Source: Deinococcales bacterium
GTDB taxonomy: Bacteria; Deinococcota; Deinococci; Deinococcales; JAAFIG01
Length of the DNA: 24,840 nucleotides
Assembly: GCA_031414595.1 (NCBI GenBank)
Contig: JANNVX010000063.1
Location: 1-24,840 of the forward strand
Direction: 5' to 3'
A program made the translations under genes and the position numbers. Shown here in pieces: positions 168-24,641 of the stretch; the first letter of the stretch is position 1, and every line of letters begins with the position of its first letter. The notes beneath the pieces were generated by a model. The model was not told the origin of the DNA. It ran no database searches and worked only from the letters and a program-made list of their open reading frames with translations.

Positions 168-1220
168 TCATTCAATGCCAAGGAATGCCGCCATACGTTC
201 AAGTTCGGCTTTTAATTGCCGCTTAAAAGCCGCGCTTTTGGGCTGGCGCACATAGCCAAGCTCTGCTGTAAAACCATTTTTAACACTGATGTTCGCCCAA
301 CCAATCACTTCGGTGTTGTAGAGCATCGGCAGGGCGTAATAACCTCGGATGCGTTTTTCTGGTTTTGTATAGGCTTCAAATCGGTACTCCCAGCCATGCA
401 GTAATTCAAATCTGCGTCTGTCCCAAACAATCGGGTCAAATGGTGCAAGCAGGGTTACACTGTCCGTTGGTTCAGTGCTAGGCTCGAGAAGCGGCATTGC
501 CCATTTTATGCCGTCCACCAGCACCGTACTGAGTTGCTGCGCCAGTTTTCGGGTCAGTGGTTTAAGACTTGGTGCGCCAAGCCCAGAAAAAGAACAGAGC
601 TGCAATAAACTGCTCAAAGGTAGAGGTGCATAATTCTTTAGGATTAACTCGAGTATTCCCGTGGCTCGAGCCTCGGGGGTTAAAATTTTTACATTATGCG
701 TTACCGCTTCGTAAACCTTAATGCCCTTTTCGCGCCCAGCGACACGCAAATGCCCTTGGTAATGCAGCCCTTCAAGCGCTCGAGTGGTAGCGTTAGAAGT
801 GCCGCCCCACGCATTGCCGACTCGGGTTTTTCCAAAATGTGTTTCTAAGGCTTTTGGGTGACTTGCGCCGTTTTGACGCACATACTCGAGAACTTCTGGA
901 ATTAAATCTGGTGCATCGGCTTCAATCATCAATTTTCTAGCACGGACTCGAGGGTGAAAAAGTGGGCGCAGGGATTGTTGTAAAAAGCCGTAATTGACAA
1001 AGTAATCCTCGTCAATACTCAGTTTTGGGTACTGTGTCTCGAGCCTTCCAGCAAGATAGCCCTGCACTCGAGGACGAAGAATTAGGTCTTGCGCCCGAGC
1101 AGGAGCGCGAATTGGGTCGGCTTGGACAAATCCAAGTTTTTCTAGGGCATTCTCGAGGCTGTCGGGCGTAAAAAGTGTTTGACTGACCGCAAGGCGGCGC
1201 AGGTCTTTGAGTGTGGTCAT
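168..1220 (-). CDS. ycaQ: YcaQ/AlkZ-superfamily (HTH_42) DNA crosslink-repair glycosylase
   Basis: 350 aa. N-terminal FVQADPIRAPARAQDL carries the Q-x-D motif of the YcaQ-like clade. C-terminal LLAPFDPIVWDRRRFELLHGWEYRFEAY..RGYYALPML is typical of the family. Confidence 0.88.
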   Translation of the reverse strand: MTTLKDLRRLAVSQTLFTPDSLENALEKLGFVQADPIRAPARAQDLILRPRVQGYLAGRLETQYPKLSIDEDYFVNYGFLQQSLRPLFHPRVRARKLMIEADAPDLIPEVLEYVRQNGASHPKALETHFGKTRVGNAWGGTSNATTRALEGLHYQGHLRVAGREKGIKVYEAVTHNVKILTPEARATGILELILKNYAPLPLSSLLQLCSFSGLGAPSLKPLTRKLAQQLSTVLVDGIKWAMPLLEPSTEPTDSVTLLAPFDPIVWDRRRFELLHGWEYRFEAYTKPEKRIRGYYALPMLYNTEVIGWANISVKNGFTAELGYVRQPKSAAFKRQLKAELERMAAFLGIE

Positions 1221-1226
1221 AAAATC

Positions 1227-1232
1227 ATATTA
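1227..1232 (-). promoter_or_regulatory. Putative -10 box (TAATAT) for leaderless ycaQ transcript
   Basis: Minus-strand TAATAT lies 6 nt before the ATG at 1220 and overlaps the TAA stop of the upstream SRPBCC gene. No Shine-Dalgarno is visible. Confidence 0.55.
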
Positions 1233-1688
1233 CGATATTGGCGTAAAAAATGCTGCCAGTGCGCCAAGTCTTTTTTTGGTCTCAAGCCGAAATATCAGGG
1301 TCATGATTGGATGAAGTAACCACCTTAACCACCTTGGACGCGCCGTAAAATTGTATTTGTACTCAATTTCAGAAGTGCCATTTGGTAAGTCCCTATGCCG
1401 AATCGTGGCAGCAAATTTTGCAAAAAAAGGCGGTTGATTGACCAATTGAATTGCCGCCGAAAATGGTGGCTTGAACGAAATATACTTGGTTTTAACCGCA
1501 AATCCACCTAGCCCAATTCGTCCGACACAAACCGAGGTCGCATCAAGCTGCGCCGATTCCCAGCCATCGGTTAAATAAGCGGCTTTTAACAAGGTGTCCC
1601 ACTCGAGTCGTCGGTTGTAATCATGAAACACTGCAAAGACCTCGGTGCTTGGTGCGGCAATGACAGCAGTGATTGACCCATGAGGCAT
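1230..1688 (-). CDS. SRPBCC (polyketide cyclase/START-like) family protein
   Basis: 152 aa. N-terminal SITAVIAAPSTEVFAVFHDYNRRLEWD and the C-terminal amphipathic helix are typical of SRPBCC proteins. AAGGA SD upstream. Confidence 0.8.
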   Translation of the reverse strand: MPHGSITAVIAAPSTEVFAVFHDYNRRLEWDTLLKAAYLTDGWESAQLDATSVCVGRIGLGGFAVKTKYISFKPPFSAAIQLVNQPPFFAKFAATIRHRDLPNGTSEIEYKYNFTARPRWLRWLLHPIMTLIFRLETKKRLGALAAFFTPIS

Positions 1689-1699
1689 AAGTGTTCCTT

Positions 1700-3250
1700 T
1701 TACTCGGCTTGAAAAAACTGAGTTCTCGAGAGCAATAATTTGTTGCTGCTATCAAATACCCGTAACTCGAGGCTGTGTTTGCCTTTCTCGAGGGCGGGGA
1801 GTTTGGCAATGTAGGGAATGGTTCGGCTTTCGGCAACCACAGCGTTGTCAAGCAGGTACTGCACCTTGTCTGGCAATGGGTCAAAGGTTTTAATCCAAGC
1901 TGTGACATCAAACGGGAAACGTGCCAAAATTCGATTTGGAAAACGGCTTGGCATGACGGTTGGTTCAAGCGCGTCGTAATGAATAAAAATTGGATTTGAT
2001 AATATGGTTTTCATTGCCTCGAGTTTTATGCCGACCAACTGATAATTGTTGCGTCGTTCGGCAGCCCTTGAAGGGGTGATGTACTTGGAGCGAATCATGT
2101 CTATATCCAGCCAATTGATGTTTTTGATGCGTGGATAGCGTTGTGCAACGCCCCAGTAAAGCATACTCATTTTCTGCACCGCATAATCGGTGTAGTCGGT
2201 GCTTGGAGTCAGCAATGTTTCGTGACTGGCAGCGTATTCGCTAATTTGAATCGGGTGACGACGAGCGTATTTTTCGTAAATTGGTTTTAATTGGTCGAGC
2301 GGCGAGACCCTGATATTATTTTGTTTGATGTCCCCATTGGCAAAAGGTGTGCTGTACATCGAAATCCCAACCCAATCCACGTACTTTTCTCCTGGGTAGT
2401 AGGCATCCAGCACCTCGAGCCGACTTGCCATTGGCATCCAGACGATGACCGCATTGGGGGCGATGTTATGAAAGGTATTGGCGACCAATCTAAATTTTTG
2501 GATGTACAGAGCAGGGTTTTTGCTCCATTCGTTACTCGGGTCGTTGAATTCACCCGCGAAACGAATAAAGGTTGGTACACCCGAATTCCGCACGGCTTTG
2601 GCAAACGGCTCGAGGACATCTGCGCTGATTTGTGCCAGTGGCGTACTGGGTTCAATGGCTAAATGCACCATGCCGTTTGCTTTTCGTACCGCATTGTAAA
2701 ACCGTGTTGGGAAGAATGGACGGCTTGCATTGCCTTGGCTGGGTTTAATCAGTTTGTGATAGCGAAAGTAAACCGCAAATCTCGAGCCAAAGCGGTTGGG
2801 TACACGCAACTGGTCACGTTCATCAATGCCTGTTTCATCCACATACATGCCCATCAAGACACCATTGTTTGGCTCGAGCAGGGCAAGTTTAGCAGCTTTT
2901 TGCACAGGTTGCCAAATGTAGACTTCGCCTTGTTGCCGAAATGGATTGGTACGGTTTTCTAAAGCCCTTGCAGTAATCAGGTCGTTTTTAGCACGGTACT
3001 TGGCAATGGCTTGGTCAAAGGCTTGGGTGGCGTTATCGTACTCCTCGAGTTTGGCATACGCCTCGCCGAGCCAACGCCAATTGGCGGCGGTTGGGTTTTG
3101 TTGCACCGCGTTTTTGAAGGCTGTCGCCGCCGTGCGGTAATCGCTTTGCTGCATCGCAGCTTGCCCAGCCGCGTACCACTGGTCGGCATTGCGTTGCCCC
3201 AAAGCCAGACTCGAGATAAGCAGTAAAATCAAAGCCAATAAAAGGCGCAT
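1700..3250 (-). CDS. Secreted TPR + glycoside hydrolase family 26-like protein with C-terminal beta-rich (Ig-like) domain
   Basis: Signal peptide MRLLLALILLLISSLALG; two TPR-like repeats (QWYAAGQAAMQQSDYRTAATAF.., NWRWLGEAYAKLEEYDNATQAFDQAI). GH26-type motifs FIRFAGEFN, YYPGEKYVDWVGISMY and PIQISEYA. C-terminal KVQYLLDN..GKHSLELRVFD. Confidence 0.8.
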   Translation of the reverse strand: MRLLLALILLLISSLALGQRNADQWYAAGQAAMQQSDYRTAATAFKNAVQQNPTAANWRWLGEAYAKLEEYDNATQAFDQAIAKYRAKNDLITARALENRTNPFRQQGEVYIWQPVQKAAKLALLEPNNGVLMGMYVDETGIDERDQLRVPNRFGSRFAVYFRYHKLIKPSQGNASRPFFPTRFYNAVRKANGMVHLAIEPSTPLAQISADVLEPFAKAVRNSGVPTFIRFAGEFNDPSNEWSKNPALYIQKFRLVANTFHNIAPNAVIVWMPMASRLEVLDAYYPGEKYVDWVGISMYSTPFANGDIKQNNIRVSPLDQLKPIYEKYARRHPIQISEYAASHETLLTPSTDYTDYAVQKMSMLYWGVAQRYPRIKNINWLDIDMIRSKYITPSRAAERRNNYQLVGIKLEAMKTILSNPIFIHYDALEPTVMPSRFPNRILARFPFDVTAWIKTFDPLPDKVQYLLDNAVVAESRTIPYIAKLPALEKGKHSLELRVFDSSNKLLLSRTQFFQAE

Positions 3251-3256
3251 AACCTC

Positions 3257-3262
3257 AGTCTA
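3257..3262 (-). promoter_or_regulatory. Putative -10 box (TAGACT) for leaderless GH26 transcript
   Basis: Minus-strand TAGACT lies 6 nt before the ATG at 3250. Confidence 0.6.
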
Positions 3263-3274
3263 AAGCATCTTTGT

Positions 3275-4249: not shown

Positions 4250-4256
4250 GTTGCCT

Positions 4257-5398: not shown

Positions 5399-5410
5399 CG
5401 TCATGGTTTT

Positions 5411-7390: not shown

Positions 7391-8296
7391 ATGCTCGAAC
7401 AACGACTCGACAAAATTCGGCAGTATCTTTATCAACATGGACTCTCGAGTGTCCAAACTTTGGTGGGTCACACCAACTCTTCGCTTGCCACGATTCGCCG
7501 TGACCTCGAAAAACTCGAGACCGAGGGCGTGGTCATCCGTACCCATGGTGGAGCAAAACTTGCCGACTCGAGCGGTGTAGAAGTCGGTTTTCGGCAACGT
7601 GAACACCGCGAAGTTGCCCACAAACGCGTCATTGCCGAAGCAGCTTATAAGCACCTGAAGCCAGACAGCAGTATTTTTTTAGACTCCAGTACCACCGCTT
7701 TGCAGTTGGCTCGGCGCTTACGCTTACATCCAATTCGCTTAAATTTAACCACCAATAGTTTTGCGGCGGCTCAAGAATTATTTGGTGTTCCCGAAGTACA
7801 ACTTTTATTTGTCGGTGGGCATATCCGTACCGAAAACCTTGCCACAATAGGCATGTACGCCGAAGAAACCCTAGACCGACTCTGGTTTGACCAACTTTTT
7901 ATGAGCGCCAATGCGATTCACCAAGACCACGGATTCACCACCTTTGACACTTCCGAAGCAGCAATCAATCGCAAAATGCTAACTCGAGCCACCAAACGCT
8001 TTGTGCTTTCGGATTTTACCAAATTTGGACGTATTGCACCGCATCACATTGCTGCGCTTTCGATGGTGCAACACATCATCACCGATTCGCGACTGAGCAC
8101 CACTTGGGCAGAACATCTTTACCGAGCAGGAGTTCATCTCGAACAAACGCTCGAGCCACAATCCACCACGCTCGAGCCACAATCCACCACGCTTGAGCCA
8201 CAATCCACCACGCTCGAGCCAAAAATGTTCAAACCGCACCACCCCACTATTAGCCACAACGAGACACGAGTCTCGAGGTTGCAGGAGGATTTATGA
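7391..8296 (+). CDS. DeoR/GlpR family transcriptional regulator with repeat-containing C-terminal extension
   Basis: HTH SSLATIRRDLEKLETEGVVIRTHGGA. Sensor-domain motifs IFLDSSTT, TTNS and DFTKFG. The stop overlaps the next start (ATGA). Confidence 0.93.
   Translation: MLEQRLDKIRQYLYQHGLSSVQTLVGHTNSSLATIRRDLEKLETEGVVIRTHGGAKLADSSGVEVGFRQREHREVAHKRVIAEAAYKHLKPDSSIFLDSSTTALQLARRLRLHPIRLNLTTNSFAAAQELFGVPEVQLLFVGGHIRTENLATIGMYAEETLDRLWFDQLFMSANAIHQDHGFTTFDTSEAAINRKMLTRATKRFVLSDFTKFGRIAPHHIAALSMVQHIITDSRLSTTWAEHLYRAGVHLEQTLEPQSTTLEPQSTTLEPQSTTLEPKMFKPHHPTISHNETRVSRLQEDL
8147..8221 (+). repeat. In-frame 21-bp tandem repeat (3 full copies + 12-bp partial) centred on CTCGAG
   Basis: Unit ACGCTCGAGCCACAATCCACC at 8147, 8168 and 8189 (third copy has CTTGAG), partial at 8210. 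It encodes (TLEPQST)x3-TLEP. Confidence 0.97.
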
Positions 8297-9546
8297 AAAA
8301 ACGTTGGGTATTACTCGCAAGTGCTTTTGGTGCATTAGGTATGGCAGCATTAGCTCAGAACAAAGTCTCGATTGAATTCTGGTCTTGGTACTTAAGCCCG
8401 AAATTTGATCCGTACTTACAAGGAGTGATTAACGAATTCCAAAAAGCCAATCCAAACATCGAAGTCAAACTTGTAGATAAACAAGACACCATGGAACGTG
8501 ACTTGCAAGCCTCGATTGCCCTTGGTAAAAGCCCTGATGTGGTTAATCTCTGGCAAGATGCAACCGCCGCTGCCGCCCAGAACGGTTTGCTCGCACCAAT
8601 TAATGACCTGACCACGATGAGTCAATTACAAGCACAATTTTGGAATAACACCCTGAATATGTTTGTGATAGACGGCAAGAATTATGGCTACCCGTGGTAC
8701 GGCTGGACAGACCAAGGCGTGATGGCGTACAACACTGAAATCATGAAAAAGGCTGGCATTACAAAAGTTCCAACCACCATCTCGGGTTTACTAACCGCTT
8801 CAAAAATCATTAAACAACGCACCGGTTCATATGGTTGGTTGCCATCGGTTAAAGACCCGAACGGTGCGAGTTTCTTAGGGCAATTCTATCTCGAGGGATT
8901 ACCGCTCTTTGCTAACGGTAAAGCTGCCTTTAACACTGCTAAGCACACCGCGCTTTTGCAAAAATTCATTGACTTAATGAAAGGCGATTTTATTCCGCAA
9001 GACTTACTTCGTAAGGAAGCCTTCCAACTCAACAACGAATACTACAGCCAAGGTAAGAGTGCCTTTATCGTCGGTGGCGCACAAGCCCTTGTGCGGGTCA
9101 AAGATGCCAACAAAGATATTTACTCCAAAACCAAAGTTGTTCCCGCTCCACTCGGGGCTGGCGGCGTACAGACTGGCGGCAGCATGAGTCTGGTTATTCC
9201 AAAAGCCAGCAAGAACCAAAAAGAAGCGGCTTTATTTGCGATGTTCATGACCAACAACAAAGCCCAAGTACAATTTGCTAAACTGGCTGGAATTGTTCCA
9301 ACCACCAAAGGTGCAGAAAACGACCCAGACTTAAAAGCCGCCAATCCAAACGATGCTTTGGACGTTGCGACATCATTGGTCAGTGGCACTGGACGCTTTA
9401 TCACCCCGGGTTGGAGTCCACCCAAGAACACCGATAATGTCTACAAGAACTTTAACGACAATATCGAAGCTGCTTTCTTAGGTGCAAAATCTGCCCGTCA
9501 AGCATTAAATGACGCTGTGGCATTTTGGAATGCCAACGCTAAGTAA
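8293..9546 (+). CDS. Sugar ABC transporter substrate-binding protein (CUT1 family)
   Basis: Signal peptide ending ALA-Q. Motifs IEFWSW, FQKANPNIEVK, PDVVNL, DGKNYGYPWY and GGSMSLVIPK. AGGAGG SD. Confidence 0.92.
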   Translation: MKKRWVLLASAFGALGMAALAQNKVSIEFWSWYLSPKFDPYLQGVINEFQKANPNIEVKLVDKQDTMERDLQASIALGKSPDVVNLWQDATAAAAQNGLLAPINDLTTMSQLQAQFWNNTLNMFVIDGKNYGYPWYGWTDQGVMAYNTEIMKKAGITKVPTTISGLLTASKIIKQRTGSYGWLPSVKDPNGASFLGQFYLEGLPLFANGKAAFNTAKHTALLQKFIDLMKGDFIPQDLLRKEAFQLNNEYYSQGKSAFIVGGAQALVRVKDANKDIYSKTKVVPAPLGAGGVQTGGSMSLVIPKASKNQKEAALFAMFMTNNKAQVQFAKLAGIVPTTKGAENDPDLKAANPNDALDVATSLVSGTGRFITPGWSPPKNTDNVYKNFNDNIEAAFLGAKSARQALNDAVAFWNANAK

Positions 9547-9554
9547 AAAAACAC

Positions 9555-9580
9555 AGAGGCTCGAGTTTTCTCGAGCCTCT
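9555..9580. terminator. Perfect 11-bp stem-loop after the SBP gene (mRNA-stabilising or partial terminator)
   Basis: AGAGGCTCGAG-TTTT-CTCGAGCCTCT. There is no U-tract on the plus strand; an A-run precedes the stem. Confidence 0.65.
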
Positions 9581-9689: not shown

Positions 9690-10601
9690 ATGAAAACTAA
9701 ATCATCTGTCACATTCACTGCCTATTTATTGTTACTGCCTGCCTTGGCTTTAATGGCTGTATTTACTTTTTATCCAGTCTTGTACGGTTCTTACCTTGGT
9801 TTCACAGAGTATACAGCCGCTAACTTAGGCTCGAATACCCCACCAAAATGGGTGGGACTCGAGAATTTTCGCACTGTCATTTCCGATGAATTATTTAGAA
9901 TAGGGTTGCTCAATAGTCTTAAATACCTGATCATCGTACCGATTTTGCAAATGGCAAGTTTAGCAGCAGCAGTGCTGGTCAATCGGCAAATTCCCGGGAT
10001 TGCGCTTTTTAGGGCTGCCTATTACGTACCCGTGATTACTTCGATTACTCTGGCAGCCGTGATGTGGGATTGGGTTTTTACCCGTGAAGGACTCTTAAAT
10101 TATGTTCTCGAGTTTTTTAAGATTATAGACCCTAACGGTTCTTTTGGTTGGTTACTCAATCCGAATACCGCTCTCTGGGCGATTATGTTGGTCACATTTT
10201 GGCGTGGTTTTGGCTATTACATGGTCTTGTACCTTGGTGGTTTGCAGAGTATTCCACTAGAACTCGAGGAAGCAGCCTTACTGGATGGAGCGAATGCTTG
10301 GCAGCGTTTCTGGCAGATTACTGTCCCACTGATGCGCCCAACAATTTTACTGTGCAGTTTACTCTCGAGCCTAGCGGCAATTCGGGTTCTCGAGGAGATT
10401 CTGGTCTTCACCAATGGCGGACCCTTAAACAGTACCTATACGGTTTTAATGTATGTCTACCAAAAATCTTTTGGCTTAGACTTTAATTATGGTGTGGCGA
10501 GTGCGGCTGGTTTGTTACTAGCAGTGGTTGGTTTTATCTTGTCGTATATCAATTTTCGGATTACTCGAGAAGATGCGCCAAAACGGGGGGCAAAAGCATG
10601 A
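9690..10601 (+). CDS. Carbohydrate ABC transporter permease 1
   Basis: YLLLLPAL, WVGLENF and EAA motif LEEAALLDGANAWQRFWQITVPLMRP. ATG 9690 follows AGGA and is preferred over TTG 9684. Confidence 0.93.
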   Translation: MKTKSSVTFTAYLLLLPALALMAVFTFYPVLYGSYLGFTEYTAANLGSNTPPKWVGLENFRTVISDELFRIGLLNSLKYLIIVPILQMASLAAAVLVNRQIPGIALFRAAYYVPVITSITLAAVMWDWVFTREGLLNYVLEFFKIIDPNGSFGWLLNPNTALWAIMLVTFWRGFGYYMVLYLGGLQSIPLELEEAALLDGANAWQRFWQITVPLMRPTILLCSLLSSLAAIRVLEEILVFTNGGPLNSTYTVLMYVYQKSFGLDFNYGVASAAGLLLAVVGFILSYINFRITREDAPKRGAKA

Positions 10602-11449
10602 AAACTCGAGTTGCGCCGTTCAAAGCTCTAAATTTAGGCTTAACCTATGTGTTACTGATTACCATTGGTTTATTTGCAGTTTTTCCTTTCTTGTGGACAT
10701 TTGCCATCAGCATTACCGATAAAACCGTTGCCAGTGGTGTTTCGATTTTTGATTTCCCGCAATCACTTTTTCCTAAAGCCATTACCTTTAACAATTTTAT
10801 CGAGGTCTACCGTGTTTTTGGACTCGAGAAGTATTTACTGAATTCGGTGATTATTTCTTTTGCGACAGTTCTGGGGACGTTACTGGTCTCGGCAATGGCA
10901 GCCTACCCGCTTTCTAAAATGGTTTTTCCGGGGCGTGACCTGATTTTTGGGGCGATGCTGGCAACCTTGGTTTTACCCAGTGAAACAAACTTTATCGTCA
11001 ATGTCCTGACGCTTAATAAAATCGGCTTACTCGGCACATATTGGGGTGTAGTGATTCCCACGATTGCCACGGCATTTGGTATTTTTATCATGCGCCAAAC
11101 CTATATGGCAGTCCCAGATTCGCTGCTCGAGGCGGCGCGAATAGATGGTGCAACTGAATTCCAGATTTTATGGCGGATTATGATTCCACTTTCTCGCCCA
11201 GCCCTGACAGCCCTAGGTATTTTTACCTTGGTCAACACTTGGAATTCATATTTCTGGCCCAGTGTGGCACTGCTTGGGGCGGATAATCTTCAACCGCTTT
11301 CAGTGGCAATGCTCAAACTCAAAGGGCAATTTAACCATGATTCTTTTAATGTCGCGGCTGGGGCAATGATTATGATGATTCCAGTGTTAATTGTTTTTGT
11401 CGCCGCACAACGTCTTTTTATGCGTGGACTCGAAGGGGCAGTGAAATAA
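10598..11449 (+). CDS. Carbohydrate ABC transporter permease 2
   Basis: EAA motif LLEAARIDGATEFQILWRIMIPL; also WNSYFWP and QRLFMRGL. ATGA overlap with permease 1. Confidence 0.93.
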   Translation: MKTRVAPFKALNLGLTYVLLITIGLFAVFPFLWTFAISITDKTVASGVSIFDFPQSLFPKAITFNNFIEVYRVFGLEKYLLNSVIISFATVLGTLLVSAMAAYPLSKMVFPGRDLIFGAMLATLVLPSETNFIVNVLTLNKIGLLGTYWGVVIPTIATAFGIFIMRQTYMAVPDSLLEAARIDGATEFQILWRIMIPLSRPALTALGIFTLVNTWNSYFWPSVALLGADNLQPLSVAMLKLKGQFNHDSFNVAAGAMIMMIPVLIVFVAAQRLFMRGLEGAVK

Positions 11450-12553: not shown

Positions 12554-13597
12554 ATGAAAAAGTTTGTTCTTGTGGCATTTGGTGGAGTCGTCGCATTGGG
12601 TTTGTTAGCGCAGGGTTCGGCGCAAACTCGAGTGCTGAACTTGTTTAACTGGTCGGAGTACATGGATCCCGCCATTCTCAAGGACTTTGAAAAGCAGTTT
12701 GATGCCCGAGTCAATGTGTCTTTATACGAATCCAACGAGGATTTAATCGCTAAGCTCAAAGCCAATGGTGGCAGTCAATACGATGTGGTTGTGCCGGGGC
12801 AGTATGCGATTCCTTTGATGTCTAGGTCAAACTTACTCTTAAAACTCGATAAGACCAAAATCCCAAATATCAAGAATTTATCCAAAAAATTTGTCAATCC
12901 CAGTTACGACCCTCAAAACACCTACAGCGCCGCTTATCAATGGGGAACAGTTGGCGTGGTTTACCGCAAGGATAAAGTCAAACCGACCGAACAAAGCTGG
13001 TCATTGTTTTTTGACAAGACCAAACAACAAGGCACTTTTTTAATGATGGATTCGACCCGAGAAATGCTCGGACCAGTCCTCAAATACCTTGGCAAAAGCC
13101 TCAACAGCACCAAACCCGACGACCTCAGAGCCGCCCTCGAGATGATGGTTGAAACCAAAGGACGCAGCCTAGGCTTTGATGGCGGCGTAGGCAACCGCAA
13201 TAAAGTTGCGGCTGCCCAAGCCAATTATGGGGTGGCGTACAACGGCGATGTGGTTAAACTCCAAGCCGAAGACCCCAACCTTGGTTTTTTTGTTCCCAAA
13301 GAAGGCAGCGTAATTTTTACCGACAGCATGGCGATTCCGATTAAAGCCCCAAATGCAGCCCTTGCACATCAATTTATTAACTTTATTCTTGACCCCAAAG
13401 TCGGAGCGCGTCTGAGTACCTACAATCAGTACGCCACGCCCAACGAAGCCGCCAAGCCTTTCTTGAAGAAAACCGATGTCCAGAACTCAGCTATTTATCC
13501 ACCTGCTAATGTGATGGCAAACCTCGAGTTTATTCTTGACTTGGGTAAGAATAATAATTTGTACGATAGCGCTTGGACGAAGATAAAAGCAAGGTAG
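12554..13597 (+). CDS. potD: Spermidine/putrescine ABC transporter substrate-binding protein (PotD/PotF family)
   Basis: LNLFNWSEYMDP, YESNEDL, YQWGTVG, PKEGSVIFTDSMAIP and AHQFINFILDP. Start moved to ATG 12554 (MKKFVL signal peptide), 5 nt after GAGGGG. Confidence 0.85.
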   Translation: MKKFVLVAFGGVVALGLLAQGSAQTRVLNLFNWSEYMDPAILKDFEKQFDARVNVSLYESNEDLIAKLKANGGSQYDVVVPGQYAIPLMSRSNLLLKLDKTKIPNIKNLSKKFVNPSYDPQNTYSAAYQWGTVGVVYRKDKVKPTEQSWSLFFDKTKQQGTFLMMDSTREMLGPVLKYLGKSLNSTKPDDLRAALEMMVETKGRSLGFDGGVGNRNKVAAAQANYGVAYNGDVVKLQAEDPNLGFFVPKEGSVIFTDSMAIPIKAPNAALAHQFINFILDPKVGARLSTYNQYATPNEAAKPFLKKTDVQNSAIYPPANVMANLEFILDLGKNNNLYDSAWTKIKAR

Positions 13598-17568: not shown

Positions 17569-17592
17569 AAATTACGGTAAACTGCATGTTCT

Positions 17593-17919
17593 ATGGACGA
17601 AATGATTATCGAAGATAGCATCATCGGCACAGGCGCAACCGCAACTTCTGGACAAATTGTTAAAGTCCACTACACGGGTATGTTCCCAGATGGCAGAGTT
17701 TTTGACTCGAGCCTGCCACGGGGTGAAGCCTTTGAATTCCCCCTTGGGGCTGGGCATGTGATTAAAGGCTGGGATGAAGGTGTAGCCGGTATGAAAGTTG
17801 GCGGAAAACGCAAACTGACCATTCCACCACATCTTGGGTATGGCGCAAGGGGCGCGGGCGGTGTGATTCCACCAAATGCCACACTCGTTTTTGAAGTTGA
17901 ATTGCTTGGCGTGGAGTAG
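17593..17919 (+). CDS. FKBP-type peptidyl-prolyl cis-trans isomerase
   Basis: [40 protein letters not shown] and [14 protein letters not shown]. Confidence 0.96.
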
Positions 17920-17928
17920 AATAAAAGC

Positions 17929-18204
17929 ATGACCATGCTTGAACAAGTCTTATCAAAAAAAGCCTTTGCTGCTTTAGAGCAAATTCGGCAATCACGCGGC
18001 ATCCGTTCTCGAGCTAAAACACTAGAAATGCTGTTGCTCGAGAATGCACCAGATGAAGACGAAATTAATGGGGAAATCGTTCACAGTCCCGAAGATGCGG
18101 CGCTGTTTGCATCTCGAGTTGCCTCAGCCAAAGCAGGGAACACCATTCCAGCCGAAGAAGTTTGGCGAATGCTAGATGAAAAAATCCGAAAGTCCGGCAC
18201 ATGA
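17929..18204 (+). CDS. Putative type II antitoxin (RHH-like N-terminus, acidic C-terminal region)
   Basis: 91 aa immediately upstream of a RelE-like gene with an ATGA overlap. C-terminal AKAGNTIPAEEVWRML resembles RelB/ParD-type tails. TAGAAT -10 (17917-17922) lies 6 nt before the ATG. Confidence 0.72.
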   Translation: MTMLEQVLSKKAFAALEQIRQSRGIRSRAKTLEMLLLENAPDEDEINGEIVHSPEDAALFASRVASAKAGNTIPAEEVWRMLDEKIRKSGT

Positions 18205-18494
18205 GACGATTAGCTGGAACACCTTTACAACTCAGATTTGAATTTGATTCGCCAAAAGAATTACTTCAACTTGCAAGTCATGATGCTTTGGGTGTCAAAA
18301 GACAACTCGATGAACTTGCTTTAACAGGACTTGGCGATGTAAAACCTCTTAGAGGCTCAAAAGATTATTTTCGTTTACGTGTAGGACAAGTTCGGATTGA
18401 GTTTTATGTTGAACTACCTGTTCATCTTCTGGTTGTTGTGCGTATTTTTTATCGTCAAGAAGGATATAAGACCAAAGGGCGCTCGAGACGTTAA
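18201..18494 (+). CDS. RelE/ParE-superfamily type II toxin
   Basis: 97 aa with GDVKPLRGSKDYFRLRVGQVRIEF..LVVVRIFYRQEGY, the typical RelE/StbE pattern. Confidence 0.85.
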   Translation: MRRLAGTPLQLRFEFDSPKELLQLASHDALGVKRQLDELALTGLGDVKPLRGSKDYFRLRVGQVRIEFYVELPVHLLVVVRIFYRQEGYKTKGRSRR

Positions 18495-19675
18495 TGAATT
18501 ATCTTCTGGCTCATACGGTGCGCTTTAGCCGTGAGTTACGTGAAGCTGGGGTGCGGGTCACACCAAGCCAAACCGAGGTTTTCACACTGGCGCTCAGTCA
18601 TATTTCGATGCTCGAGCCAAAAGCCTTTGCCGATACTGCCCGAACTTGTTTAATCTCGAGACGCGAGGACTTGGCTAAATTTGAACAGGTTTTCAGAACC
18701 TTCTGGACTGAACTTGGCATGGGCGGAATTCCCGATGAACTGCTGAATCAACTGAGCCTACCCAATCAGCAACAAAAACCCCGTCCTGCCGAAGTTCGGG
18801 AAAGCTCGAGTCAAACTGCGCCTCGTTCAGATTTGCCACCACAACCGCTGACCGACCGAGCCTTGACCTACAGTTCTGATGAAACCCTTAAAGCCAAGCG
18901 TTTTGACCAAATGAACCCGTTTGAACTCGAGGCAGCCAAAAATGCCTTAAAGCGTTTTCAGTGGCGCGTTGGCGAGCGGCGTACCCGACGATTTGCACCT
19001 GCCACCAAAGGCGAACGGCTCGATTACCGCAAGTCGTTTCGCACCGCCATGCGTTATGGGGGCGAATGGATTCGGCTCGAGATGAGACAAACAAAAACCA
19101 AGCCACGTCCGCTTGTTGTGATTGCCGATGTCTCGGGCAGTATGGAACGCTATGCACGGTTGTTGCTGCATTTTATGCACGCTGTAACCCAACGACTCGA
19201 GCGGCGCAATATCGAAACTTTTGCCTTTGGTACACGCCTGACCAGAATCACCAAGAACCTCGAGCGGCGCGATGTAGATACTGCCCTGACCGAAGTCGGA
19301 CAGCGCGTTAATGATTGGTCTGGCGGAACACGCATTGGCTCGAGCTTAGAAATTTTTAATCGGGTTCATGCCAAACGGGTCTTAGGACGCGGCGCAGTGG
19401 TCCTCATTATCTCCGATGGCTGGGATCAAGGCGAACCGAACGTACTGGGCGCAGCAATGGAGCGCTTACAAAAAACCTGTCACCGTTTAATCTGGCTTAA
19501 CCCACTGATTGGCACAAAGGATTTTCAACCTCAGACAAGGGGACTTCTGGCAGCCCTACCCTTCGTGGATGATTTCCTGAGCATTCATAACTTAAGCAGT
19601 CTCGAGCAACTAGCCACACATCTTGAAGGCATCAGCAGTTTGCGTTCGGCAAGACGCAGTGGGCTTAAAGGTTAA
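18494..19675 (+). CDS. CoxE-like VWA domain protein
   Basis: N-terminal FSRELREAGVRV..FEQVFRTFW; MIDAS DVSGSMERYAR; FAFGTRLTRIT, WSGGTRIG, ISDGWDQG and LIWLNPL. Confidence 0.9.
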   Translation: MNYLLAHTVRFSRELREAGVRVTPSQTEVFTLALSHISMLEPKAFADTARTCLISRREDLAKFEQVFRTFWTELGMGGIPDELLNQLSLPNQQQKPRPAEVRESSSQTAPRSDLPPQPLTDRALTYSSDETLKAKRFDQMNPFELEAAKNALKRFQWRVGERRTRRFAPATKGERLDYRKSFRTAMRYGGEWIRLEMRQTKTKPRPLVVIADVSGSMERYARLLLHFMHAVTQRLERRNIETFAFGTRLTRITKNLERRDVDTALTEVGQRVNDWSGGTRIGSSLEIFNRVHAKRVLGRGAVVLIISDGWDQGEPNVLGAAMERLQKTCHRLIWLNPLIGTKDFQPQTRGLLAALPFVDDFLSIHNLSSLEQLATHLEGISSLRSARRSGLKG

Positions 19676-20055
19676 AGGTTAGGAAATTCTACTAATGCGC
19701 CTAGTCCAAGAATAATTTCCTCAAGAACTTCGGGTTCGAGAACACTAAGACGCTTAATAAAACGTTGCGAACTAACAGTCATAGCTCGAGTTTGTGCTGT
19801 GTCTGCCGCCGATTTCTTCTCGAGACCATTTTGGATTGTTGATTCAATGGGAATAATCCAAATTCGATTTTCGTAAGTTTTTGCCCATCCTGTTAATGGA
19901 ACGACCAAACGAACAGGATGTAACAGCAGTGCATCAGAACTAATGACCACGGCAGGACGTTGTTTTTGAATTTCAGAACCCCTAGCGGGATTAAAATTAA
20001 CTTGCCAAATTTCGCCACGCTTTACAATTGGTGGGACACCGTAAACTTCAGTCAT
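19672..20055 (-). CDS. PemK/MazF family toxin (endoribonuclease)
   Basis: KRGEIWQVNFNPARGSEIQKQRPAVVIS, VVPLT, NGLEKKSAADTAQTR. Confidence 0.92.
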   Translation of the reverse strand: MTEVYGVPPIVKRGEIWQVNFNPARGSEIQKQRPAVVISSDALLLHPVRLVVPLTGWAKTYENRIWIIPIESTIQNGLEKKSAADTAQTRAMTVSSQRFIKRLSVLEPEVLEEIILGLGALVEFPNL

Positions 20056-20245
20056 GGAGTCCTGTTAGGTCATCGGTTTGTTCAAGCCATTCCATCGCTT
20101 CGGAATCGGGTGTGTAAATTGCCTCGCCAATAGCTTGTAGCTCAAGTAAATCACGCCTTTGTTGAACCGATAAACGCATAAATGCCCGCCTGTCTAAATG
20201 AGGCAACGGATGTGTTCTATCCGTGATTTGTTGGGAAGAGTTCAT
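20048..20245 (-). CDS. Putative antitoxin of the MazF gene (65 aa, not MazE/AbrB-like)
   Basis: Overlaps the toxin start by 8 nt; acidic C-terminus. TACACT -10 (20253-20258) lies 7 nt before its ATG. Confidence 0.7.
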   Translation of the reverse strand: MNSSQQITDRTHPLPHLDRRAFMRLSVQQRRDLLELQAIGEAIYTPDSEAMEWLEQTDDLTGLHD

Positions 20246-20291
20246 ACTAAATAGTGTAGCAGGTTCATCTAGCCCATGTTACTCTGCCCAA
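20246..20291. promoter_or_regulatory. Divergent leaderless promoters (antitoxin-MazF / hisA)
   Basis: Minus-strand TACACT (20253-20258) is 7 nt before ATG 20245. Plus-strand TG-T-TACTCT (20277-20285) is 6 nt before ATG 20292. Confidence 0.65.
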
Positions 20292-20993
20292 ATGGTTAAT
20301 GTGATTCCTTGTGTGGACATTCAACGCGGACGGGCAGTACGGCTTTATAAAGGCGACCCAAAACTCGAGACGGTCTATTTTGATTCGTCTCTCGAGGCAG
20401 CGCTGCACTGGGCAAACAAAGGTGCAAAACTGGTGCATTTGGTGGATTTAGACGCAGCCACTGGCACAGGCGAGAACCGCGCCATTATTCTCGAGATTGC
20501 TAAGACCTTGAGTGTACCGGTTGAAGTTGGTGGTGGGATTCGCAGTCTCGAGTCGGCAAGGGAATTACTAAACGGTGGCGTAAACCGAATTATTATTGGA
20601 ACGGCAGCCGTGACCGACCCAAAATTGATCAAAACTGCGATTCTCGAGTTTGGCACAGATAAAGTTGTGGTTAGCCTAGATGCTAAAGAGGGCTTAGTGG
20701 CGGTCAAAGGTTGGGCAGAAACCAGCAGTCTGAGTGCCGTAGAAATGGCAGCCCAAGTTTGGGAGGCTGGAATCCGCACCCTGATTTACACCGATATTGC
20801 CAGAGATGGTACACTCGAGGGCTTAAATCCAGAGCCACTAAAACCGATGCGACTGGCTTGGCGAGGTGAGCTAATCGCCGGTGGTGGGGTGCGTGACCAA
20901 GCCGATATTCGTCTGCTCGAGACCCTAAGAATAGAGGGTGTGATTGTTGGACGAGCGATTTACGAAGGGACACTCAAATTTGGGATAAACTAA
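20292..20993 (+). CDS. hisA: ProFAR isomerase (histidine biosynthesis)
   Basis: VIPCVDIQRGRAVRLYKG, VHLVDLDAA, VEVGGGIRS, IYTDIARDGTLEG, IAGGGV and GVIVGRAIYEG. Start corrected to ATG 20292. Confidence 0.95.
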   Translation: MVNVIPCVDIQRGRAVRLYKGDPKLETVYFDSSLEAALHWANKGAKLVHLVDLDAATGTGENRAIILEIAKTLSVPVEVGGGIRSLESARELLNGGVNRIIIGTAAVTDPKLIKTAILEFGTDKVVVSLDAKEGLVAVKGWAETSSLSAVEMAAQVWEAGIRTLIYTDIARDGTLEGLNPEPLKPMRLAWRGELIAGGGVRDQADIRLLETLRIEGVIVGRAIYEGTLKFGIN

Positions 20994-20996
20994 ATC

Positions 20997-22154
20997 ATGA
21001 CAACAGACTTAGCGGCTTTACAATCTAAACTCCGTGATTTTATGAATAGCGTTGTTATCCCAAGGGAACGCGAATTCGTTGGGCATTTTAGCCTCGAGCA
21101 ACTCGAAACGGTTCGGTCAGAACTGCAAACCGAAGGCAAAAAAACGGGGCTGTGGTTGCCGCATTTACCAAGTTCGCTTGGGGGTTTGGGGCTGCCTTGG
21201 GTACAAGCCTATAAACTTTTCATCGAAGCGGGACGCAGTATGCTCGGACCTCATGCGCTAAACATTGCCGCGCCAGATGAAGGCAATATGCACTTGCTGC
21301 ATGTGGTGGCAAATGAAACCCAAAAAGAAAAATGGTTGATGCCATTAACAAAGGGTGAAATCAGGTCGTGTTTCTCGATGACCGAACCACCGCCCGGGGC
21401 GGGTTCAGACCCAAGTATGCTCCAAGCCAGTGCGGTTAAAGAAAATGGAGTCTGGAAACTCGAGGCAAAAAAATGGTTTATTTCAGGAGCGTGGGGTGCA
21501 GCTTTTACGCTGATACTGGCAAAAACTGTAGAAGGTGCAACGATTTTTTTAATCCCAATGAATCACCCAAGTATTCGGATTTCTCGAGTCATCCCAACGC
21601 TTGACCATTTTTCGCCTGGTGGACATTGCGAACTCGAGTTTGACAATTTAGAGCTAACTGATGCCGATGTACTTGGTGAACCCGGTAAGGGTTTTGATTA
21701 CGCTCAGATTCGCCTCGACCCAGCCCGATTAACCCACTGTATGCGCTGGCTTGGAATTGCCATGCGTTCACTCGAGTACGCCGAAAATTACGCGCTCAAC
21801 CGTTCGAGTTTTGGCAAGAAATTATCTGAGCAGCAAATGGTGCAACAAATGATTGCCGATAGCCATATCGAAATTTTTGCTTGCCAGACAATGATAGAGC
21901 AGGCTTGTCGAATTTTAGACGCGGGTGAGCGAGTTCGCCATGAAGCCAGCATGACCAAGGTTTTTGTGTCCGAAGCGGTCAATAAAATCATTGACCGCAG
22001 CTTGCAAATCATGGGCAGCACAGGCATTAGCGAAGATTATCCAGTCTCGAGTTTTTATAAAGAAGCGAGACCATTTAGAATTTATGATGGGGCGAACGAA
22101 GTCCACCGCATGAGCATTGCGCGGCGGGCATTTCGGCGGGCTTCGGAACGTTAG
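20997..22154 (+). CDS. Acyl-CoA dehydrogenase family protein
   Basis: APDEGNMHLL, RSCFSMTEP..GSD, KWFISGA, RLTHCMRWLG and RIYDGANEVH. Confidence 0.95.
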   Translation: MTTDLAALQSKLRDFMNSVVIPREREFVGHFSLEQLETVRSELQTEGKKTGLWLPHLPSSLGGLGLPWVQAYKLFIEAGRSMLGPHALNIAAPDEGNMHLLHVVANETQKEKWLMPLTKGEIRSCFSMTEPPPGAGSDPSMLQASAVKENGVWKLEAKKWFISGAWGAAFTLILAKTVEGATIFLIPMNHPSIRISRVIPTLDHFSPGGHCELEFDNLELTDADVLGEPGKGFDYAQIRLDPARLTHCMRWLGIAMRSLEYAENYALNRSSFGKKLSEQQMVQQMIADSHIEIFACQTMIEQACRILDAGERVRHEASMTKVFVSEAVNKIIDRSLQIMGSTGISEDYPVSSFYKEARPFRIYDGANEVHRMSIARRAFRRASER

Positions 22155-22222
22155 CGGTTAACATTCTGTACTGCGTCTAAACTCTTCGCCTCGAGCCTGA
22201 ATAATTTGTATGATGCACCACC

Positions 22223-24193
22223 ATGAATGAGACCCTTGCTGTCAATACCTTACGCGCCCTCGCCCTTGATGCTATTTGCAAAGCCAAAGAAGGACACCCC
22301 GGTGCGCCGCTTGGGATGGCGGCGATTGGTTATGTGCTGTGGACAAAAATCATGCGCTATAACCCCAAAAACCCAAACTGGTTGGCTCGAGACCGTTTTG
22401 TGCTGAGTGCGGGTCATGGCAGCATGTTGCAGTACGCCGCTTTGCACCTGACGGGGTATGACTTGCCACTTGAGCAACTAAAGCAATTCAGGCAATGGGG
22501 CAGTGCCACGGCTGGACACCCAGAAGTTGGGCATACGGCTGGAGTCGAGACCACCACTGGTCCACTTGGGCAGGGCTTTGCCAATGCGGTTGGTATGGCA
22601 CTGGGTTTACAGCACTTGGCGGCGCGGTACAATCGTGACCAACACGAGATTGTGGACGGATTTGTCTATGGTATTTGCTCTGACGGCGACCTCCAAGAAG
22701 GGATTTCACACGAGACCGCCAGTTTAGCGGGGCATCTTGGGCTTGGCAAACTGATTATGCTTTACGATGACAACAACATCCAACTTGATGGTCCGACCCA
22801 GTGGGCATTTTCCGAAGACATAACAGTGCGTTTTATGTCTTACAATTGGCAAGTCCTCGAGATTACCGAGGGCGATACCGATTATGCTGGTCTCGAGAAT
22901 GCGATTAAAGCTGCCCAAGCCGACCCACGTCCAAGTTTAATCAAAGTCAGAACCACGATTGGTTATGGTTTACCAAAGGCGGGACAAGCCGATGTTCACG
23001 GTAAAGCCCCAAGCGCGGATGATGTGATTTTTGCCAAAAAGCAGTACGGTTTTACGAACCTCGAGCCGTTTTTTATAGACCCAGAAGGTGCTGCCCCGTG
23101 GCAAGAAGCTGGTGCAAAAGGTGCGGTACTCGAGGCAGCAGGCAATGCCAAATACGGGGCGTATATGGCAGCTTACCCAGAACTGGCATCAGAATTACTC
23201 AGCATGATGCAAAATCCAGTCCAGCACTACCCACTCGAGAACTTGCCCAAATACGAAGTTGGCAAGATGGTACGCACCCGTAACGCTGGCGGCGACAGCA
23301 TCAATGTGCTTGTTAAACTCGAGCCACGCCTGATTGGTGGCAGTGCCGACCTCAGCAGCAGCAACATGACGACCATCAAGGGCGAAGCTGCCATGACCAA
23401 AGATAATTTGGCAGCCCGCAACATTAACTTTGGAGTACGCGAATTTGGTATGGCGGGTATGGCAAATGGTATGGCACTGGTGGGGCTACGCCCGTTTATC
23501 GCCACATTCTTTACCTTCTCCGATTATATGAAAAACGCCATCCGCATGGCAGCCCTGATGCACCAACCTGTGATTTATGTCTTCACCCACGATAGCATTG
23601 GTGTAGGCACAGACGGACCAACCCACCAACCGATTGAACATTTGGCAGCCTTGCGAGCGATTCCAAACCTAAGCGTCATTCGCCCAGCCGATGCCAACGA
23701 GACCAGTGTGGCATGGAAAATAGCCCTCGAGCAGCAGCATAAACCAACGGCGATTGTGCTTAGTCGCCAAGATTTACCAGTCCTCGAGATAAACGCCAAT
23801 GCAGCCAAAGGCGGCTATATTGTTAAGGATTCCGACGGCACAGCCGATGTGATTCTGATTGCTACTGGCAGCGAAGTGAGTTTGGCACTCGAGACCCAAA
23901 AAGCACTGCTCGAGCAGGGGAAAAAAGCCCGTGTGGTCAGTTTGTTGTCTTGGGATATTTTTGCCATGCAAAGTGCCGAGTACAAGGAAAGTGTACTGCC
24001 CAATAGCATCCGCGCTCGGGTGGCGATTGAGGCTGGCTCGAGCCTCGGCTGGGAGCGGTTTGTGGGCTTGGATGGCGGTATGGTGACGCTTGACAGGTAC
24101 GGAGCAAGTGCGCCAGATGCGGTGGTGTTTAAGGAGCTTGGGTTTAATGTGGAGAATGTGGTTAAGGTTGTTCTCGAGACAATAAAAGGATAA
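22223..24193 (+). CDS. tkt: Transketolase
   Basis: GHPGAPLG, RDRFVLSAGHGSML, TTGPLGQG, DGDLQEGIS, FGVREFGM, THDSIGVGTDGPTHQP and RPADANE. Confidence 0.98.
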   Translation: MNETLAVNTLRALALDAICKAKEGHPGAPLGMAAIGYVLWTKIMRYNPKNPNWLARDRFVLSAGHGSMLQYAALHLTGYDLPLEQLKQFRQWGSATAGHPEVGHTAGVETTTGPLGQGFANAVGMALGLQHLAARYNRDQHEIVDGFVYGICSDGDLQEGISHETASLAGHLGLGKLIMLYDDNNIQLDGPTQWAFSEDITVRFMSYNWQVLEITEGDTDYAGLENAIKAAQADPRPSLIKVRTTIGYGLPKAGQADVHGKAPSADDVIFAKKQYGFTNLEPFFIDPEGAAPWQEAGAKGAVLEAAGNAKYGAYMAAYPELASELLSMMQNPVQHYPLENLPKYEVGKMVRTRNAGGDSINVLVKLEPRLIGGSADLSSSNMTTIKGEAAMTKDNLAARNINFGVREFGMAGMANGMALVGLRPFIATFFTFSDYMKNAIRMAALMHQPVIYVFTHDSIGVGTDGPTHQPIEHLAALRAIPNLSVIRPADANETSVAWKIALEQQHKPTAIVLSRQDLPVLEINANAAKGGYIVKDSDGTADVILIATGSEVSLALETQKALLEQGKKARVVSLLSWDIFAMQSAEYKESVLPNSIRARVAIEAGSSLGWERFVGLDGGMVTLDRYGASAPDAVVFKELGFNVENVVKVVLETIKG

Positions 24194-24203
24194 AAGGAGA
24201 CTT

Positions 24204-24641
24204 ATGAACATGGATGAGTACAAAGTGGCAACTTTAGCAATCGGGGATAGAAAAGTTAAGGGAAAAGCAAAGTTTACTTATAAAAAAAGTGATTTAACTG
24301 AAAGGTTCAATCCGGCAAATCCTGTTTTTGATTTTTTTATGGGTGAATTTAGCGCTTTATTAGAAGAATTTGGTCTTGAATACGATCAAAATAGTCAATC
24401 TTGTAGGATACTAGATTCAAATACTGAAAATAGATCTAAACAAGTGGACTCTGAATCAAACTCCGAAAGAAAAACAATCGTTCAACAAATCATAGGTGAT
24501 GAACAAGTAATATTTACCGTATTTTTAAGCGATGGAGTGCAGATCGATATACCTGTAACAGTAGAAAATAGCTCTTCAAACGATGGACTTTCTATAACAG
24601 TTAAATTCAGTAAGACAACCCCCTATACTCGAGGCAACTAA
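24204..24641 (+). CDS. Hypothetical protein, AT-rich (145 aa)
   Basis: AAGGAG SD just upstream; visibly more AT-rich than neighbouring genes. No recognisable motif. Confidence 0.6.
   Translation: MNMDEYKVATLAIGDRKVKGKAKFTYKKSDLTERFNPANPVFDFFMGEFSALLEEFGLEYDQNSQSCRILDSNTENRSKQVDSESNSERKTIVQQIIGDEQVIFTVFLSDGVQIDIPVTVENSSSNDGLSITVKFSKTTPYTRGN

Follow-up and report, generated by a model that had tools for sequence, protein, structure and literature searches.

CTCGAG is a highly iterated palindrome of a family of Deinococcales, outside the cyanobacteria

The closest described counterpart of the pattern reported here is the highly iterated palindrome (HIP) HIP1, GCGATCGC, a GC-rich (guanine plus cytosine) word of eight letters that is hyper-abundant throughout cyanobacteria; it is found both in spacers and in genes, there in every reading frame, and its positions are conserved more strongly than the background. 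To our knowledge HIP1 still lacks an explanation after thirty years, and its study has been confined to a single phylum; work on cyanobacterial HIPs was reportedly also carried out by Xu et al. in 2018. The word analysed here is the six-letter palindrome CTCGAG, in a 24,840-bp stretch of DNA from a Deinococcales bacterium (contig JANNVX010000063.1 of assembly GCA_031414595.1, hereafter the window) and in the genomes of its family. The original prediction, drawn from the letters of the window, had described CTCGAG as a HIP1-like iterated palindrome outside cyanobacteria, and this description holds throughout the genome and the family, in all codon phases and with a footprint of six bases. CTCGAG is thus of the HIP type, but differs from HIP1 in phylum, in its letters, in a five-fold higher density and in its visible imprint on the proteome, and no methyltransferase cognate to it has so far been found.

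HIP1 has the methyltransferases DmtA and DmtC, and according to Elhai (2015; PMC4390886) each alternate HIP goes with a methyltransferase of the same specificity; CTCGAG does not appear in that paper. Kamoku and Nielsen report that methylated HIP1 sites enhance the natural transformation of Synechococcus PCC 7002, with increases that reach more than 100-fold, and propose effects of HIP1 on uptake or processing, plus a Chi-like role. According to Rodriguez-Cruz et al. (2026; PMC13756078), HIP1 abundance correlates across the cyanobacteria with type IV pilus and competence proteins and not significantly with DmtA or DmtC, from which those authors derive the hypothesis that HIP1 is a phylum-wide uptake watermark. 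In literature searches that had subscription journals outside their reach, we found no link of CTCGAG with over-representation in any bacterium, and no joint occurrence of "iterated palindrome" with Deinococcus, Thermus or Deinococcota.

Other described systems share part of this behaviour. The DNA uptake sequences (DUS) of Neisseriaceae and uptake signal sequences (USS) of Pasteurellaceae, which spread by molecular drive in Neisseria and Haemophilus, are likewise family-wide words that are found in all compartments, shape peptides, are lower in recent islands, are sometimes paired as hairpins after genes (here at 9555-9580) and belong to lineages with a competence channel. They differ in being 9–12 bp long, non-palindromic and present about once per kb, and in that experiments have demonstrated both their receptor and the bias in uptake. 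Chi sites, the strand-oriented marks of self DNA associated with RecBCD/AddAB, are also short and over-represented, some having only five to seven bases, but Chi is asymmetric and co-oriented with replication, whereas CTCGAG is its own reverse complement and cannot be oriented. Finally, the same six letters are the target of restriction-modification systems of the XhoI/PaeR7I type and reportedly of one in M. smegmatis; such targets are avoided in their hosts, whereas CTCGAG is enriched 24-fold in this one.

The window is one contig (C63) of an assembly of 4,488,778 bp in 120 contigs, 94% complete by marker genes (genome G000). A direct count gave exactly 135 copies of CTCGAG, or one per 184 bp, in an array spanning positions 483..24633 (no strand) from the first copy at 483 to the last at 24628-24633. 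The prediction had estimated about 135 copies, one per 185 bp, with about 6 expected; the expectation is 2.9–5.6, given that 100 dinucleotide-preserving shuffles of the window contained 2.86 copies on average (maximum 7, none reaching 135) and that the zero-order value is 5.6. Moreover, the word had been said to occur in almost every gene, and it does so in all 23 of the ORFs (open reading frames) of at least 100 aa, which hold 125 sites. Ten sites lie outside ORFs, at the six positions already named (7378, 9560, 9570, 9636, 14171 and 22190) and at 18008, 18037, 18113 and 18482. All three codon phases are used, again as proposed, with 81 sites in the Leu-Glu phase (CTC-GAG), 23 in the phase xCT-CGA-Gxx, 21 in the phase xxC-TCG-AGx and 10 intergenic. 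From the ORF starts, the copy at 22856..22861 (+ strand), in a transketolase gene (22223-24193) with 13 sites, falls in the Leu-Glu phase, and that at 10605..10610 (+ strand), in an ABC permease gene (10598-11449), in the Arg phase (xCT-CGA-Gxx); both genes were identified by Pfam scan. Other words are scarce in the window, with no GAGCTC and one GGCC. Logan contigs of one sequencing run, possibly the source of the window, reproduce it with 0 differences over pieces of 3,336, 12,217 and 4,379 bases, and contigs from a second study represent strains 90–99% identical to it (four runs from two studies altogether).

The enrichment extends beyond this contig. Genome-wide there are 23,235 copies of CTCGAG, an observed-to-expected ratio (O/E) of 23.9 that ranks it first among all hexamers and exceeds the roughly 15-fold genome-wide excess by which a short palindrome is counted as a HIP. 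Counted on both strands, 46,470 copies stand against Markov expectations of 1,067 (first-order) and 2,562 (second-order). Every contig has at least 2.3 copies per kb, and none of the 837 windows of 5 kb has fewer than 6 (mean 25.9, standard deviation 6.4). As the prediction had held, the flanks vary and the unit is the hexamer. The flanking bases are nearly free genome-wide, CCTCGAGG excepted. TCGA outside CTCGAG (10,239 of 33,474 TCGA) is not enriched and the other NTCGAN palindromes are nearly absent (29 copies of TTCGAA, 26 of GTCGAC and 89 of ATCGAT), so the unit is the full hexamer. The CCTCGAGG exception amounts to 178 copies, where single-flank frequencies predict about 700 and each of the fifteen remaining flank pairs has 1,108–1,905; the eight-letter palindrome seems to be avoided in its own right.

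Coding and non-coding DNA carry the word alike. With crude gene calls (a greedy set of 3,244 ORFs that do not overlap and reach at least 150 aa, together 3.73 Mb), CTCGAG density is 5.14 per kb in these long ORFs and 5.38 per kb in the remaining genome, and the short spacers between long ORFs (1,341 spacers of 20–300 bp, 140.8 kb, GC 42.5%) contain 740 copies, or 5.26 per kb, an O/E of 32.8 as compared to 23.1 in coding DNA. As with HIPs, then, all coding frames and non-coding DNA are occupied. Near starts and stops, density stays level between -300 and +300, apart from a dip to 4.3 per kb at the start and values of 6.6–6.9 just past the stop. Long ORFs hold 19,163 sites, divided among the phases CTC-GAG (11,423), xCT-CGA-Gxx (3,712) and xxC-TCG-AGx (4,028). 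The excess survives a codon-shuffled null, since about 1,870 sites (about 1,255, 372 and 241 by phase) remain when the synonymous codons of each gene are shuffled, and each phase stands 9–17 times above this value; shuffling codon order leaves about 877. Codon choice follows context, with CTC making up 64.7% of Leu codons before Glu and 7.9% elsewhere, and GAG 70% of Glu codons after Leu and 20% elsewhere, and 60% of the 19,027 Leu-Glu pairs are spelled CTCGAG. The protein sequence has itself been changed, as the O/E derived from amino-acid frequencies is 2.22 for Leu-Glu and 0.98 for Glu-Leu, a visible shift of amino-acid usage by which CTCGAG differs from HIP1. The equal density in spacers and the context-dependent codon choice bear out the proposal that protein sequence alone is insufficient, and the effect is one at the level of DNA that does not come from protein coding.

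Genes for structural RNAs set a limit to it. The 23S rRNA genes of two family members have 0 and 1 copies in 2.9 kb, compared with 18–22 in the 3-kb flanks, and 68 tRNA genes of the window's genome have 7 copies against 27.5 expected at genome density. The force on CTCGAG is weaker than the constraint on rRNA and stronger than codon preference and many amino-acid preferences. A cluster at C56:1-3000 of the same genome contains five tRNA genes (two Ser, Cys, Thr and Glu) that each carry a copy of CTCGAG, as do 2 of the 63 others.

All 19 genomes of the family, from 5 genera, carry 4.3–6.8 copies per kb; they are 57–94% complete, and one is a closed contig of 5.09 Mb (G013). Loci of the closest relatives have 4.4–6.6 copies per kb and no GAGCTC. 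In samples of 170–400 kb from three other genera of the family, with GC contents of 52.5, 59 and 62%, CTCGAG is the top hexamer, with O/E values of 25, 14 and 12; as this holds over sampled GC contents of 47–62% (47, 52.5, 59 and 62%), the trait is independent of base composition. The word is shared by the whole lineage, as is the case for HIPs. The rest of the order was represented by 132 genomes from four other families (151 genomes in all). Two of these families include genomes at 1.5–3.4 copies per kb, with O/E values of 5.9–7.9 in three sampled genomes. The force on CTCGAG is older than the family in question. In one genus (g7; 35 genomes of 1.9–4.8 Mb) CTCGAG is depleted to 37–942 copies per genome and GAGCTC is similarly low, and in the remaining genomes of the order CTCGAG is unremarkable, about as frequent as GAGCTC.

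Alignment of the window with five other genomes from its genus revealed both gain and loss of sites, and retention beyond that of control hexamers in every case. At 91% identity, G001 retained 86 of 100 sites, with a fraction of 0.61 of control hexamers identical; the corresponding values were 80 of 97 and 0.67 for G005 (92% identity), 62 of 77 and 0.285 for G003 (80%), 64 of 98 and 0.256 for G007 (78%), and 30 of 56 and 0.21 for G006 (76%). Identity by position was 0.88–0.97 at the six CTCGAG positions and 0.6–0.85 at most flanking positions, so that the conservation footprint is essentially six bases wide. Synonymous positions are included in this retention: in the comparison with G003, third codon positions were identical at 87 of 94 inside Leu-Glu-phase sites and at 222 of 374 in the flanks. 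Such positional conservation beyond background is again as described for HIPs, and agrees with the proposal that a process at the DNA level creates or keeps the sites genome-wide.

Sites present only in the relative and only in the window are about equally numerous (12/14, 11/17, 26/15, 30/34 and 22/26 in the five comparisons). In the trio G000, G001 and G005, read with outgroups, 58 sites are common to all three, and 11 losses and 5 gains could be polarised. One site gained in the G000 lineage lies at 13136..13141 (+ strand), where G001 and G005 read TTAGAT and both outgroup genomes lack the site; the gain took three changes, including one from Asp to Glu, and TTAGAT is also found, among the differences listed, in a related-strain contig from run X5 of another study. 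Conversely, the site at 8138..8143 (+ strand) was lost in G000, which reads CTCGAA where G001, G005 and the outgroups have CTCGAG, and the same holds for 7684, 12014, 12108 and 13388. Where a site faces a non-site, 14 of the 50 pairs (6 of 24 for G001, 8 of 26 for G005; these pairs are not independent) show at least three differing positions, compared with 6–7% of differing control hexamers. Templated conversion was considered as the source of this multi-letter excess and set aside, because fast decay of the unpreferred CTC and GAG codons after loss, or import of divergent DNA, explains it equally well.

In the genome of the window CTCGAG outnumbers all of its one-letter neighbours combined, by 23,235 to 11,992 (about 1.9 to 1). 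The ratio of sites to one-off words is 1.85 in spacers and 1.96 in genes, compared to a neutral value of 1/18 (0.056), which represents a 33–35-fold shift; being alike in genes and spacers, it indicates that the force acts per site, regardless of context. A directional force specific to CTCGAG thus exists, and a two-class model that assumes symmetric mutation puts the scaled bias, whether by selection or by conversion, roughly at 3.5. In cyanobacterial loci recovered by the same transketolase search, HIP1 occurs 0.27–1.04 times per kb, with a ratio of sites to one-off words of 0.5–2.9 against a neutral 1/24 (0.042), that is, a 12–69-fold shift and a scaled bias of 2.5–4.2, a range that includes the value for CTCGAG. 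The similar shifts point to a similar strength per site, with the six-letter word being much denser, by 5–20 times in the loci measured (5.2 per kb). Among the one-off words themselves those of the C-to-T type are the least depleted (O/E 1.07–1.23), with transversion words at 0.17–0.69, a stronger depletion of the latter than expected under a simple model. As a fingerprint of mechanism this spectrum was discarded, since it is confounded by CTAG avoidance and by the rarity of CTC and GAG codons, and only a negative conclusion on very-short-patch repair was drawn from it.

Gap lengths between neighbouring sites are otherwise close to geometric (coefficient of variation 0.99; 44% are multiples of three), but short gaps are in deficit, those of up to 20 bp making up 3.4% against 9.9% under the geometric expectation and those of up to 50 bp 16% against 23%. 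A gap of 6 was never seen, because it would create GAGCTC. A gap of 7, CTCGAGNCTCGAG, occurs in 101 copies, compared with 17–49 for gaps of 8–11, and several of these lie inside longer inverted repeats beside runs of A or T.

The abundance of CTCGAG contrasts with the fate of other palindromes. In the same genome 58 of the 64 palindromic hexamers fall under expectation and 34 have an O/E below 0.1 (1,093 copies against 35,075 expected), the rarest including GGGCCC with 0 copies, TGCGCA with 2, CGATCG with 3 and GAGCTC with 6; GGCC occurs 152 times in 4.5 Mb. Palindromes with an O/E below 0.1 number 11–25 in the three other sampled genera and 11–13 in G010 and G013. The sets avoided differ among genera, the O/E of TGCGCA being 0.00 in G000, 1.21 in G010 and 1.08 in G011, a pattern that changing restriction systems would produce. 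Because these sets vary while the enrichment of CTCGAG is constant, the two phenomena are separate and the purge is not the cause of the enrichment.

Regions poor in CTCGAG, with 1.9–3 copies per kb compared with 5.2 for the genome, comprise a polysaccharide cluster, a region of defence and RHS genes, a Tn7-like element and a copper/thiol island, and the four CTCGAG-poorest windows retain 5.75 forbidden palindromes per 5 kb, compared to about 1.0–1.2 in denser windows. Density is thus lower in recently acquired DNA, here islands of atypical GC content with genes of the flexible genome, than in the core, as is the case for uptake sequences. This is in keeping with a gradual conversion of imported DNA to the resident pattern, although it might also have come from relatives in which CTCGAG was already present. 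The regions of lowest density, C14:16000-46000 and C46:26000-44000, are islands of the flexible genome. One of them has a GTPase-associated defence system with a SIR2 protein, beside a 2,937-aa RHS protein with a pretoxin-HINT neighbour, and the other is a polysaccharide-synthesis cluster with a GC content of 38.5%. Phages of these hosts were identified neither from viral contigs with three clustered CTCGAG, among the matches listed, nor by a search for HK97 capsid proteins, for which none of the 19 family genomes gave a match above the cut-off. Among the viral loci listed, 27 of 80 had at least 2 CTCGAG per kb beyond the triggering three, and in the five densest records GAGCTC is about as frequent as CTCGAG (e.g. 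276 vs 305), without the signature of the family.

DNA methyltransferases were surveyed with the Pfam families PF07669, PF02384, PF01555, PF00145, PF02086 and PF05063 and with two whole proteins over 19 or 151 genomes, four genomes being considered in detail. The genome of the window has about 25 such genes (11 of the gamma/Eco57I type, 8 of the beta N4/N6 class including one fragment, 5 C5 and 1 D12), none of which lies in the window, where a Pfam scan of the 23 ORFs found no candidate enzyme, in agreement with the prediction. Two of its enzymes, on contigs C89 and C4, combine Eco57I and TaqI_C domains, an architecture which we take to be that of known CTCGAG N6-methyladenine enzymes; among the 18 other family genomes, one was found in 4 and the other in 2. 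A beta-class enzyme on C98 is a further candidate. C5 enzymes are present in 17 of the 19 family genomes and absent from G010 (91% complete) and G002; beta-class N4/N6 enzymes are present in 16 and absent from the closed G013; MT-A70 occurs in one (G013). Each of the five genomes tested has a D12 enzyme, but these are 25–37% identical to one another, and three adjoin genes for MutH-like, EcoRV or NotI nucleases. The complement of G013 is one MT-A70, one C5, two D12, three HsdM-type and one Type ISP enzyme, that of G010 is one BREX-linked, one HsdM, one beta and one D12 enzyme, and no orthologue is common to G000, G006, G010 and G013. Vsr (PF03852) was not found in G000; the XhoI nuclease family (PF04555) gave no match there either, with a control that was equally silent and makes the result uninformative. 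The methyltransferase tracking the enrichment that the prediction had suggested looking for did not emerge, as none in the six Pfam families searched is common to the family, with the qualification that most of the genomes are incomplete metagenome-assembled genomes, that a non-canonical enzyme would escape and that specificities are not predictable. On present evidence, the putative reader of CTCGAG does not appear to be a conserved DNA methyltransferase. If it holds, this apparent lack would separate the HIP phenomenon from methylation and favour a role in uptake or recombination, as now proposed for HIP1.

Several explanations can be weighed against these observations. A trivial origin, whether in the usage of codons or dipeptides, in base composition, in a family of repeats or in an artefact of assembly or linkers, might be read from the 60% of sites in the Leu-Glu phase, but it is contradicted by the spacer density, the excess in every phase over the synonymous null, the unconstrained flanks, the enrichment in 19 genomes including a closed one and the agreement among contigs of four runs and two studies, and we regard it as practically dismissed. 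That mutational escape from restriction sites funnels into one tolerated palindrome, with CTCGAG as a by-product of the purge, would account for the near absence of 34 other palindromic hexamers; it is very improbable, being contradicted by avoided sets that vary by genus while CTCGAG is 12–25 times enriched in all, and most avoided words are at least 3 changes away from CTCGAG. More deserving of attention, if still improbable, is Elhai's model for HIPs, in which an orphan methyltransferase and methyl-directed or very-short-patch-like repair would convert near-sites into sites. The two Eco57I and TaqI_C enzymes of G000, with the architecture presumed for CTCGAG methylation, speak for it, but they do not track the trait, no C5, beta-class or MT-A70 enzyme is universal in the family, the D12 enzymes are mutually divergent and in three of five cases sit beside nuclease genes, the four genomes considered in detail have no orthologue in common, and Vsr was not found in G000. 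C-to-T one-off words, which such repair is expected to remove, are moreover the least depleted. In the HIP literature, the pairing of each alternate HIP with a methyltransferase of its specificity (PMC4390886) and the methylation dependence of the HIP1 effect on transformation (Kamoku and Nielsen) favour the model, whereas the repair-spacing argument predicts about one site per kb (PMC4390886), a fifth of the density seen here. Thus, of the three mechanisms put forward in the prediction, the methyltransferase has been weakened and the recombination or uptake signal is the one best supported, by analogy with HIP1.

Direct selection on each site, as the binding site of an abundant chromosomal factor such as a nucleoid protein or as a Chi-like self mark that would stop an end-degrading nuclease after about 190 bases in either direction, ranks higher than methylation and repair, although we still consider it unlikely. 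The uniform density of about 5 per kb in all compartments (0 of 837 windows of 5 kb below 6 sites), the under-representation of close pairs up to about 50 bp and the palindromic form, as expected for a dimeric reader, argue for it, as does the scarcity in 23S rRNA genes (0–1 site vs 18–22 in the flanks), where the force gives way to strong constraint in the manner of weak selection; Kamoku and Nielsen, too, suggest that HIP1 acts in a Chi-like way. The otherwise near-geometric gaps, however, indicate that spacing is not tightly regulated, and no candidate protein is known. The strand orientation of Chi is, in addition, impossible for a palindrome. Ahead of direct selection we place, tentatively and at somewhat less than an even chance, the reading that CTCGAG serves as a HIP-like watermark throughout the lineage, recognised when DNA is taken up or recombines and propagated by drive. 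A putative protein reading the exact hexamer would give each site a small transmission advantage, by preferential uptake of fragments or by preferential, Chi-like recombination of site-bearing DNA during exchange; sites would then be created, kept in place and replaced on loss, against codon preference and even amino-acid sequence. Molecular drive would have spread the word, in the manner of uptake sequences and of the proposals made for HIP1 in 2024–2026, in a lineage whose many restriction systems purged most other palindromes, and that richness in restriction systems, together with the purged sites, may be read as a mark of heavy DNA traffic. The competence channel ComEC is encoded in 18 of the 19 family genomes, and the lag of the islands in site density also fits such a reading.

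Some observations weigh against this watermark reading. ComEC is encoded in 145 of the 151 genomes of the order, non-enriched ones included, and does not track the trait; being near-universal, it was rejected as a correlate. We know of no cultured member of the family. CTCGAG has 6 bp and is five times denser than the known uptake sequences, which are longer and non-palindromic. The deficit of short gaps is not predicted by pure drive acting per site and hints at a function that depends on spacing. Finally, the effect of HIP1 on transformation depends on methylation according to Kamoku and Nielsen, yet no conserved methyltransferase has been found here. A broader form of the uptake or recombination reading, that CTCGAG represents an independent second origin of HIPs, with a conserved reader other than a methyltransferase biasing uptake or recombination, appears rather doubtful; if it were true, short palindromic watermarks would be expected to arise generally wherever lineages rich in restriction systems exchange DNA heavily.

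A second HIP-type system, with a different word and in an unrelated phylum, offers a comparative test of what such words do. The order provides a natural gradient, from a depleted genus through 6–8-fold enrichment in two families to 12–25-fold in this one (0.01–6.8 copies per kb over 151 genomes), as material for finding the reader protein by phylogenetic correlation. Codon choice and the proteome are both strongly affected, the latter by about 10,000 extra Leu-Glu pairs, and in practice the word biases any work on these genomes that relies on composition-based binning, on models of codon usage or on restriction.

Close pairs of sites form hairpins by themselves when 3–12 bases apart. Within the window, the two copies at 9560 and 9570 produce a hairpin at 9555..9580 (+ strand) with a perfect stem of 11 bp and a UUUU loop, which begins 9 bases past the stop codon of a solute-binding-protein gene (8293-9546) and was predicted by RNA folding at -21 kcal/mol (z -7.3; 0 of 200 shuffles fold as well). 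Of the 557 close pairs, 54 reach stems of at least 9 bp, 34 of these lying in spacers, which makes hairpins a side use of the word, covering fewer than 1 in 200 sites; hairpin building was rejected on these grounds as the cause of its abundance. A further concentration of non-coding sites, the four at 18008, 18037, 18113 and 18482 (18008..18487, no strand), lies in a 490-bp spacer between the ORFs 17670-18002 and 18494-19675.

Two other features of the window were noted. Positions 1-141 belong to a dispersed repeat without CTCGAG that gave 92 BLAST hits in the genome, many of them exactly at contig ends, which indicates that it breaks the assembly; the repeat is also multi-copy in G001 and G007. 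A PemK/MazF-like toxin gene at 19672-20055 is absent from related strains, as is the sequence that follows it as far as 20269; in runs X5 and X7, contigs join 19674 to 20270 via GGGA.

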